64,000 nt of DNA, taken from the NCBI RefSeq assembly GCF_057098645.1, contig NZ_CM169472.1. One strand, given 5' to 3'. Numbering within the stretch: position 1 is the stretch's first letter; each line of letters opens with the position of its first letter. This document shows positions 6,001-9,000 of the stretch, one piece after another. Made by a program: the position numbers.

Positions 6001-9000
6001 AGCACAATGCGCCGTCCGCTATGCGACTGGAACACCCTATTCTGTTCGCTGTTCGAAAGCCGCGCATAAAGCGGCAAGATTTCCGTATGTCGTAAGTTCA
6101 GTTTGTTCAGTGCATCAGCGGTATCGCGAATTTCCCGCTCGCCGCTCATAAAGATCAGAATGTCGCCGGGGCTTTCCTGGCTCAGTTCGTCTACGGCGTC
6201 AAAAATCGCCTGCAATTGATCGCGCTCGGTGTCATCGGCTTCTTCAACAATCGGGCGATAGCGCACTTCCACCGGATAGGTCCGACCGGAGACTTCGATA
6301 ATCGGCGCATTATTAAAGTGGCGCGAAAAGCGTTCCGGGTCGATAGTCGCGGAAGTGATAATGATTTTTAGGTCAGGACGCCGCGGCAGCAACTCTTTCA
6401 AATAGCCGAGCAGAAAATCGATATTCAGGCTACGTTCGTGCGCTTCATCGATAATGATGGTGTCGTACTGCATCAGCAGGCGGTCTTGCTGGATCTCCGC
6501 CAGCAGGATACCGTCGGTCATCAGCTTGACCATCGTGTTATCGCTTACGTGATCGCTGAAACGCACTTTGTAACCGATGCAACCGCCCGGCTCCGTTTTC
6601 AGCTCTTCCGCAATACGGTTCGCCACCGTTCGTGCCGCCAGGCGACGCGGCTGGGTATGACCGATCAGCCCTTTAATACCGCGCCCCAACTCCATACAGA
6701 TTTTCGGTAGCTGAGTCGTTTTACCGGAACCGGTTTCCCCGGAGACGATCACCACCTGGTGATCACGAATCGCTTCGAGAATGTCCTGCTTTTTCTGACT
6801 AACCGGCAAATTGTCCGGGTAAGTAATTTCCGGTCGTGCCGCTTCACGCAGCAGGACTTTCCCTGCCGCCTGGTCAATCTCTTTCGCCATCTCCTGGAAA
6901 ATGGCCTGTTGTGCATCAGGATTTTTAACCTTCTTCACACCATGCAGACGGCGAGAAAAACGCAGTCTGTCACGCAGCATCAGCGAATCCAGCCGCTGCT
7001 GCAAAGCAGTAAAGGTCAATTTTTGTTGTTCTGTCATAACGTTAGAGGGCAGTAGTCTGCCTGATTAATTTTCTTTTAAATGATAGATATAGAGTACCAC
7101 ATCGCGGCTTTCTATGCGTTGTTCAATAAATTCGAACATAGGCTTCGATTTATTGCGCTATCTCTGTGGCAGGATTGTGAATAAAGTGTCAGCAAGCAAC
7201 GGGGCATCGCCCATTCAAACATCTATAAGGAAACACCATGAGCAAGGTATTAGTTCTTAAATCCAGCATCCTGGCAGGGTACTCTCAGTCTAATCAGTTG
7301 TCCGATTATTTTGTTGAACAATGGCGCGAAAAGCACTCCGCTGATGAAATCACCGTTCGCGACCTGGCTGCAAATCCGATTCCGGTACTGGATGGCGAAC
7401 TGGTTGGTGCGCTGCGTCCGAGCGATGCGCCGCTGACTCCGCGTCAGCAGGAAGCTCTGGCACTTTCCGATGAGCTGATTGCCGAGCTGAAAGCCCATGA
7501 CGTTATCGTTATTGCGGCACCGATGTATAACTTCAACATCTCGACTCAGTTGAAAAACTATTTTGACCTGGTTGCACGCGCAGGCGTTACTTTCCGCTAT
7601 ACCGAGAATGGTCCGGAAGGTCTGGTAACGGGTAAAAAAGCCATCGTTATTACCAGCCGCGGTGGGATCCACAAAGATGGACCAACGGACCTGGTGACGC
7701 CGTATCTGTCCACGTTCCTCGGCTTTATCGGCATTACCGATGTGAAATTTGTCTTCGCCGAAGGGATCGCATACGGTCCGGAAATGGCAGCGAAAGCACA
7801 GTCTGACGCAAAAGCAGCCATCGACAGCATTGTTGCTGCATAACCGGACACGGTCTTGATGTGGACTGTAGATATTCAGTCCACATCTCAATCCACTTAC
7901 CTGTTTTCCCACAATCTCAGCATCGCTTTGTGTTCGTCTGTCAGCACAATCTGCGGGCGTCTGGCTCGAATATAGCTAATCGCTTCATTAACGGTTTTAC
8001 AGTGTCCGTAACATAACAACCATGCCGCCACCACCAGCGCACTGCGCGATAATCCCAATGCACAATGGACCAGAACGCTGCCTTGCTCTTCGCGTAATGT
8101 TTCCAGCATCGCCACGGCCTGTCGGAGTTCCCCCTCTTCCGGAACCACCAGATCCAACATCGGTACACAGAAATAGAGTCGATCTTTTGTCTCTCGTCCT
8201 CGAGGGAATTCAAAGGTGACGTCCAGAACCGCATTCTGTGCCGGAATATGTCGTGGAAACGCCCCTAAATAAACACCAGCAGTCATTTTGCTCACCGGCT
8301 CCAGGCGACGACAAAACCAACGCATAGATAGCCACATCCCGATGCGCCAGGGCAATGTCAGCCAGTAAACGGCGGGCGGGAGTTTCCCCTGACTATCTTT
8401 CCCTGTTGTTATCGCGCCAAACCCACCGTACCCACGGCCAATAATGAGTAGCGATAATACTGGCCAACATAACCAGACTGACCACCATAACTGAACCATC
8501 ATCATTAGCTCCATCAACACAATGCACGCGCACGCGCCTACGACATATGGCAGTGCTATTTTGATTCGACGTTGATCAGGTTTCTGATAATTCCAACGAC
8601 GGTCGACGGGTACCATCCAGTCAATCAACATACCTACCGCCAGCCCTGTGATGACATCAATAAAATGATGCTGCCAGGTTGTCAGCGTCGAAATGGCGAT
8701 GAGTAAAAACCATCCGCCGCAGACTTTACGCCAACTCACAGCCAGATGCTGACGAAAGTGACGCCAAAGTAGCCAGCAGAGAATAATATGCAGCGAAGGA
8801 GACTGAACCGCCCCGGGTTTCCTGGAGAGTGTTTTATCTGTGAACTCAGGCTGCCAGATCATCGTTTCCGATGGAAGCATAATAAGCTTTTTCTGCTTCT
8901 GCCGGAGGAGTATGGCCCAGCCTTTCCAGCAATCGTCGATTGTTATACCAGTCCACCCACGTGAGTGTGGCCAGTTCCACTTCTGCACGGTTTTTCCAGC

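Follow-up and report, generated by a model that had tools for sequence, protein, structure and literature searches.

The ynbD gene in a stretch of the E. coli contig NZ_CM169472.1 (NCBI RefSeq assembly GCF_057098645.1) is split by a complete IS629 element. This is very probably an ordinary, recent insertional pseudogenisation, and the long reading frame that leaves the element and enters the 3' part of the gene is then a passive by-product. In this explanation, an intact IS629, oriented like ynbD, would have transposed recently, by a copy-out/paste-in route, into codon 138 of that gene in an O145-type E. coli background. The insertion would inactivate ynbD. It divides the N-terminal PAP2-type lipid phosphatase domain, so that motif C1 stays with the 5' fragment while C2 and C3 go with the 3' fragment, and it cuts the 3' fragment off from the start codon of the gene. 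By chance, ynbD would have come to lie in phase with a 209-nt exit frame of IS629, giving a frame of 363 codons, and the 5' fragment would read 15 codons into the element to a stop just before orfA. Stable truncated YnbD is expected to be scarce or absent, and the allele probably behaves as a null. As far as can be judged from the sequence, nothing marks the 363-codon frame as a new gene.

The IS629 element and the reconstructed ynbD gene

The window (the whole stretch of DNA analyzed, 64,000 nucleotides) contains a single copy of IS629, a complete 1310-bp element of the IS3 family on the minus strand at 8804 to 10113, delimited by its inverted repeats and a target duplication. The left inverted repeat, IRL (TGAACCGCCCCGGGAATCCTGGAGAC), occupies 10088 to 10113 and the right inverted repeat, IRR (ending in CTCTCCAGGAAACCCGGGGCGGTTCA), occupies 8804 to 8829, both on the minus strand, and the two match at 23 of 26 positions. 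Read on that strand, the element has TGAACCGCCCCGGGAATCC at 10113 and GGAAACCCGGGGCGGTTCA at 8804; its imperfect repeats (TGAACC...GGTTCA) give it the 5'-TG...CA-3' ends and the length of about 1.3 kb of an IS3-family member. A 3-bp duplication of the target, GTC, is present on both flanks (minus strand, left copy at 10114 to 10116 and right copy at 8801 to 8803). Within the element, orfA (9733 to 10059, minus strand, 108 aa) matches HTH_Tnp_1, and orfB (8846 to 9736, minus strand, 296 aa, with its stop at 8846 to 8848) carries an rve/DDE integrase core, matches NF033516 transpos_IS3 (NCBIfam, E = 4e-94) and is made as OrfAB through a -1 frameshift. An ALIL frameshift-stimulating pseudoknot, RF01497, lies at 9662 to 9778 on the minus strand (120.2 bits; gathering score, 50), and the element thus combines two overlapping ORFs, a programmed -1 frameshift and a stimulatory pseudoknot; RefSeq labels identical copies "programmed frameshift". 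Over all 1310 bp the element is 100% identical to the "IS3 family IS629" of phage Stx2_499 (LC567824.1). That record is of an Stx2a phage, and the IS name in it was given by its depositors.

The locus is the hrpA - azoR - ynbDCBA neighborhood of E. coli, with ynbC, the interrupted ynbD and hrpA on the minus strand and azoR on the plus strand (7238 to 7843). Upstream in the ynbABCD operon, ynbC (10516 to 12273, minus strand) shares 11 nt with the beginning of ynbD, and transcription might read in from it. IS629 has the same orientation as the ynb operon and interrupts codon 138 of the 438 codons of ynbD. In-silico excision of the 1310 bp and one GTC copy gave a ynbD gene of 1317 nt with 0/1317 mismatches to the intact O145 allele (strain 95-3192, WP_000627337.1), and the restored gene lies between ynbC and azoR, the same neighborhood as annotated ynbD. 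Removal of 0, 2, 4 or 5 bp together with the element, in place of 3 bp, destroyed the match.

The same reconstruction bears on whether the insertion acts as a reversible off-switch, a transient knock-out and not a dead gene, from which precise excision, stimulated in EHEC by the IS-excision enhancer (IEE), would restore ynbD. The element and both GTC copies are intact, and excision gives back ynbD exactly; IEE-promoted excision of IS629 has been documented (PMC9330008, PMC9943667), and an IS629 insertion mutant regained its phenotype upon passage (PMC13410964). However, there is no known selective reason to toggle ynbD, a gene with neither a phenotype nor an assigned function (PMC7413402), and we regard such a switch as very unlikely. 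It is compatible with insertional pseudogenisation, as it concerns only the later fate of the allele.

The element leaves ynbD in two pieces. The 5' fragment (10114 to 10526, minus strand, 413 nt) holds residues 1 to 137 and two bases of codon 138, with PAP2 motif C1, and the 3' fragment (7897 to 8803, minus strand) holds residues 138 to 438, with motifs C2 and C3, hydrophobic segments and the DSPc domain (residues 314 to 437). Following the motif scheme of PMC7413402, C1 (Kx..RP) spans K109 to P115, C2 (PSxH, here PSLH) residues 139 to 142 and C3 (Sx6Hx3D) S175 to D186, while HCALGLSR, at residues 383 to 390, is the HCx5R signature. The restored YnbD thus has all three PAP2 motifs and a C-terminal DSPc domain (Pfam, E = 9e-28); the PAP2_3 profile scored 19 to 25 bits on it, under the gathering score of 27. 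IS629 divides C1 from C2 and C3, such that a complete PAP2 site is found in neither fragment, and the whole DSPc domain and several hydrophobic segments are kept on the 3' fragment. Among the putative membrane PAP2 phosphatases of E. coli, YnbD is counted as the fourth; it has no assigned function, and its gene can be deleted without loss of viability, even in combination with deletion of the other three PAP2 genes (PMC7413402).

Residues 216 to 434 of YnbD align to the N-terminus of NF009025 (E = 1e-28, far below the NF009025 score cut-off). The stretch between residue 216 and the DSPc domain may accordingly be capable of independent folding, and the alignment is the sole hint of a stand-alone C-terminal module.

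The chimeric reading frames and their expression signals

The minus-strand frame of 363 codons at 7897 to 8988, which joins 185 nt of IS629 to the ynbD 3' fragment, opens at a GTG codon inside the element. The preliminary description had given it this extent and this start, and our ORF listing and element boundaries reproduce both exactly. Its IS629-derived part is read in a frame other than that of orfB, and it then runs, as had also been described, without a stop into the 3' two-thirds of ynbD; the ynbD-derived part comprises residues 138 to 438 (301 codons, 69% of the gene), HCALGLSR included, and the frame matches Pfam DSPc at E = 6e-28. Its in-frame starts inside the element are GTG 8988, ATG 8880 and ATG 8862, the last of which precedes the orfB stop by only 14 nt. 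At the other end of IS629, the ORF at 10065 to 10601 is chimeric, as had been proposed, and the roughly 15 IS-encoded residues assigned to it number 15 when counted. Its mechanical start, GTG 10601, falls within ynbC, and the annotated start of the intact allele is GTG 10526. From that codon the chimeric ORF (10065 to 10526, minus strand) encodes 153 aa, namely YnbD residues 1 to 138 and the 15 residues from IS629, and its TAA stop lies 5 nt before the orfA ATG.

At the right end of IS629 the three exit frames are open for 209, 55 and 30 nt. We measured them in the IS629 copies of the window, UTME-3, Evo1, AF57 and AR_0013, and the 209-nt frame is open in every copy examined; an intragenic insertion in the same orientation as its target will therefore be in phase with the long exit frame one time in three. 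In the IS1203 copy of PS2Canimalfeces3 (∼95% identical), the long exit frame has only 158 nt as against 209 nt in IS629, and the exit frame thus belongs to the IS629 element and shows no conservation as coding sequence. A conserved overlapping gene within IS629 was considered and was ruled out by the same difference in length. ORFs of 40 to 100 codons in other frames are common across the same IS629. In AF57/AR_0013, where the element has the same orientation, the phase of ynbD is that of the 30-nt frame and no long fusion arises; among the IS alleles of ynbD examined, only that of the window is in phase with the long exit frame. An open frame into ynbD is no more than chance would give.

The preliminary description had held an IS-driven, N-terminally truncated YnbD to be conceivable. 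In this reading, transcripts started in the element, or reading through it, would yield a chimera of 321 to 363 aa from GTG 8988, ATG 8880 or ATG 8862 with some activity kept. We consider this improbable. On the side of transcription, IS629 is oriented as the ynb operon, and a terminator scan of the minus strand between orfB and ynbD, including the IS629 end, found no intrinsic hairpin. Read-through could therefore carry the 3' fragment on mRNA, and its source could be the weak transposase promoter or the ynb operon. Outward promoter elements have been described in some members of the IS3 family, namely P3R of IS3 and the -35 in the IRR of IS911 (PMC8860574, PMC9330008), and at the IS911 circle junction the outward -35 in IRR assembles a strong promoter (PMC9330008). 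IS3 (P3R) and IS911 (Pjunc and fusion promoters) are of the same family as IS629 and share with it copy-out/paste-in transposition through a circular intermediate. The general premise of outward promoters at IS3-family ends is thus borne out by these papers, but none was detectable at the IS629 end, and the literature searched contained no outward promoter for IS629.

Promoter prediction at the minus-strand IS629 end gave no encouragement to an IS-driven product. A sigma-70 consensus scan of the minus strand from 7700 to 10800 returned no site. We also ran a permissive PWM promoter scan over 660 nt (9300 to 8640), with weights that were approximate consensus frequencies. The best junction-spanning match was TTCAGT-16-TATTCT (8780 to 8807, minus strand, 5.8 bits); its candidate -35, TTCAGT (8807 to 8802), takes four nt from IS629 and two from the duplication and agrees with the consensus at 3/6 positions, and its candidate -10, TATTCT (8785 to 8780), lies in ynbD across a 16-nt spacer. 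Matches of 5.8 bits turn up in the window roughly every 215 nt; this one stands at chance level and is no evidence of function. No outward -35 in the terminal repeat with a correctly spaced -10 in the flank was found at the junction. In a simulated IRR-GTC-IRL circle junction, the candidates scored at most 3.4 bits and none had an IS911-like architecture; no consensus outward -35 is therefore identifiable in the IS629 IRR. In the right repeat of IS629, unlike that of IS911, no consensus-like outward -35 was found, either at the junction in the window or at the simulated circle junction.

The junction match could nonetheless be read as a hybrid promoter, starting transcription near 8773 and leading to a membrane-anchored DSP protein of about 244 aa from ATG 8631 or TTG 8628. 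Its 5.8 bits are the second-best score in the 660 nt scanned, and the purine-rich sequence upstream of ATG 8631 and TTG 8628 pairs somewhat better (-6.2 and -6.6 kcal/mol). Residues 216 to 434 align with the NF009025 N-terminus, and gene finders call the same 244-aa ORF in the lineages that carry a nonsense mutation or a deletion in ynbD. However, the match is of a strength expected by chance, half of its -35 departs from consensus and the sigma-70 scan was silent there, while the pairing stretch abuts the ATG, too close for normal Shine-Dalgarno spacing. We judge a hybrid promoter to be highly improbable. The 244-aa product would contain no IS-derived residues.

Translation of the IS629-ynbD chimera can be weighed in a similar way. 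The frame is open and two ATG codons lie in it, and the position of ATG 8862, 14 nt from the orfB stop, makes termination-reinitiation physically possible. Low-level translation from ATG 8880 or ATG 8862 is possible, since in-frame ATGs exist and no recognizable terminator blocks read-through. Duplex energies with the anti-Shine-Dalgarno sequence were calculated for each of the 30 in-frame starts: pairing is -3.9 kcal/mol at GTG 8988, -1.5 at ATG 8880 and -3.5 at ATG 8862, against a background with a median of -1.9 and a 25th percentile of -3.5 kcal/mol, whereas the native ynbD start pairs at -8.4 and the orfA start at -7.2 kcal/mol. Local mRNA folding around the IS-internal starts is average, at background. 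Hence, of the usable start codon and ribosome-binding site on which the preliminary description had made the proposal depend, the first is available as in-frame ATGs and the second is at background level. Most ribosomes end at the orfA stop, and OrfAB is made only after a rare -1 frameshift, so that orfB, over some 890 nt, would be largely untranslated and prone to Rho-dependent polarity, a well-established effect, and the IS-internal starts lie inside this rarely translated gene.

The chimera would keep PAP2 motifs C2 and C3, several membrane segments and the dual-specificity phosphatase domain, but not motif C1. Of what would characterize a functional fusion made by an IS, the ATG codons are present; a ribosome-binding site above background, conservation and selection were not found, and the frame is not conserved in IS1203. 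With no promoter above chance, Shine-Dalgarno pairing at background and a shorter frame in IS1203, the sequence offers no support for an IS-driven truncated YnbD.

Distribution of the allele and other lesions in ynbD

The IS629-ynbD junction of the window was not found in a search of 5,426 complete E. coli genomes. Two apparent full-length junction matches among complete genomes proved to be insertions about 280 bp away. At least three near-identical drafts do carry the allele, with 0 to 1 mismatch over ∼4.4 kb: both junctions were found in GCA_032490095.1, the left junction in GCA_029357705.1 and the right junction in GCA_029361185.1. We infer from these few near-identical drafts that the allele is the marker of a small group of near-identical isolates and is too young for selection to have left any mark. 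An exact look-up retrieved the 327-aa (ATG 8880) and 321-aa (ATG 8862) products and the 153-aa chimera from NCBI drafts. The entries of 321, 327 and 153 aa are gene-finder calls, and the support that the two longer ones lend to a truncated YnbD is algorithmic only.

The ynbD gene is at least 99% identical in 38 complete genomes, and among the matches listed, those at 100% to the region were mostly from O145 or O145:H28 strains. Since the restored ynbD has no mismatch in 1317 nt, the insertion is recent, with no sign of selection; a recent allele with zero substitutions and no evidence of selection also counts against a retained activity of the IS629-ynbD chimera.

Among 4620 complete genomes with ynbD, the gene is contiguous in 4602. 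Independent IS629/IS1203 insertions in ynbD occur in Evo1, AF57/AR_0013, PS2Canimalfeces3 and UTME-3, that of UTME-3 being accompanied by a deletion, and RefSeq tags the IS-split ynbD fragments of all of these as pseudogenes. A Q137* nonsense mutation and an 11-bp deletion at nt 389 to 399 are found in other lineages. The Q137* mutation, the 11-bp deletion and the PS2Canimalfeces3 insertion resemble the allele of the window in hitting the same PAP2 part and in leaving an uninterrupted 3' frame that bears the DSP domain; the mutational mechanisms and the positions differ. Four ynbD lesions fall within 28 nt, at codons 130 to 139, and the other IS insertions in the gene are scattered. A hotspot at codons 130 to 139 was considered and rejected as unproven, because two of these lesions were found through a cluster of N-terminal fragments of 119 to 156 aa, which is a source of ascertainment bias.

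The recurrence of such lesions could alternatively be taken as selection for uncoupling of the two domains, with read-through translation from ATG 8862 or ATG 8880, or from an internal start, giving a membrane-anchored DSP domain freed from PAP2. If this were so, the fragment could be active or dominant-negative, because residues 216 to 434 resemble the N-terminal module of another family. We hold only a faint expectation of this.

Relation to known IS629 insertions

IS629 disrupts genes by insertion, and the published intragenic insertions of the element are treated as disruptions that abolish function (PMC10810198, PMC13410964). The prophage PA2 methyltransferase gene and the capsule genes ugd and wsaE in EHEC share with the allele of the window the same IS629, an intragenic site and a 3-bp duplication, and differ from it in their target, which here is ynbD. 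The known IS629-split genes and the ynbD of the window are also alike in falling into two fragments that annotation pipelines tag as pseudogenes. Neither the IS629-ynbD allele nor its exact site was found in the literature searched.

The importance of the allele beyond annotation is small. IS629 insertions create chimeric frames that are picked up as proteins by ab initio gene prediction, and the public entries of 321, 327 and 153 aa are best regarded as fragments of a pseudogene. Expression of the truncated phosphatase, to which nothing here points, would make the locus a modest case of two domains uncoupled by an IS. In strain typing, the IS629-ynbD site could be used as a marker of a small O145-type clade, and the insertion adds one more natural loss-of-function allele of ynbD, which fits with the gene being dispensable in E. 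coli.

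Read-in frames at the left end of IS629

All three frames that enter the left end of IS629 (window 10059-10113, minus strand) are closed upstream of the orfA ATG, with stops at IS nt 1, 27, and 47 and the ATG itself at IS nt 55. The TAA that terminates the ynbD' chimera (YnbD residues 1-138 followed by 15 IS-encoded residues) lies 5 nt 5' of this ATG and directly past the orfA Shine-Dalgarno sequence. Given this spacing, translation of orfA could be coupled to read-in translation from the ynb operon.

Other lesions in ynbD

Strain PS2Canimalfeces3 (NZ_CP180604.1) carries an independent insertion of IS1203, a close variant of IS629, in its ynbD. 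The element sits 3 bp from the IS629 site of the window, at a position equivalent to window 8798-8800, in the opposite orientation and with a TCC rather than a GTC duplication. Such close spacing of two insertions might point to a preferred target nearby, but the remaining IS insertions in ynbD are scattered.

In other E. coli lineages we found ynbD pseudogene alleles that contain no IS: a Q137* nonsense mutation (CAG to TAG) at ynbD nt 409, equivalent to window position 10118 or thereabouts (loci L011/L012), and an 11-bp deletion of ynbD nt 389-399, equivalent to window 10128-10138 (loci L014-L016). Their N-terminal fragments are indexed in 144 and 129 collection blocks, respectively, and in these alleles gene finders call a 244-aa dual-specificity phosphatase ORF whose start ATG corresponds to window 8631. 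That both lesions group close to the IS site probably stems from ascertainment, through the choice of protein cluster.

In strain UTME-3 (NZ_CP168984.1, comparison locus L001, 2758-4300), an IS629 adjoins the 3' end of ynbC, and ynbD is reduced to its final 288 nt; the flanks are 100% identical to those of the window. It looks as though an IS-adjacent deletion took out most of the gene.

Annotated length and distribution of ynbD

Many assemblies annotate YnbD as a 319-aa protein (P0004, in E. coli 536 and >1000 contigs) that starts at the GTG of codon 120 (MTGWLF...). The shorter form may reflect how gene callers choose the start codon, or else a lesion farther upstream in the lineages concerned.

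When ynbD (775-2091 of comparison locus L006) was used as a megablast query against the ecoli_genomes collection, 806 of the 5,426 complete E. coli genomes gave no match, which suggests that a sizeable minority of strains lack the ynbD gene or locus.
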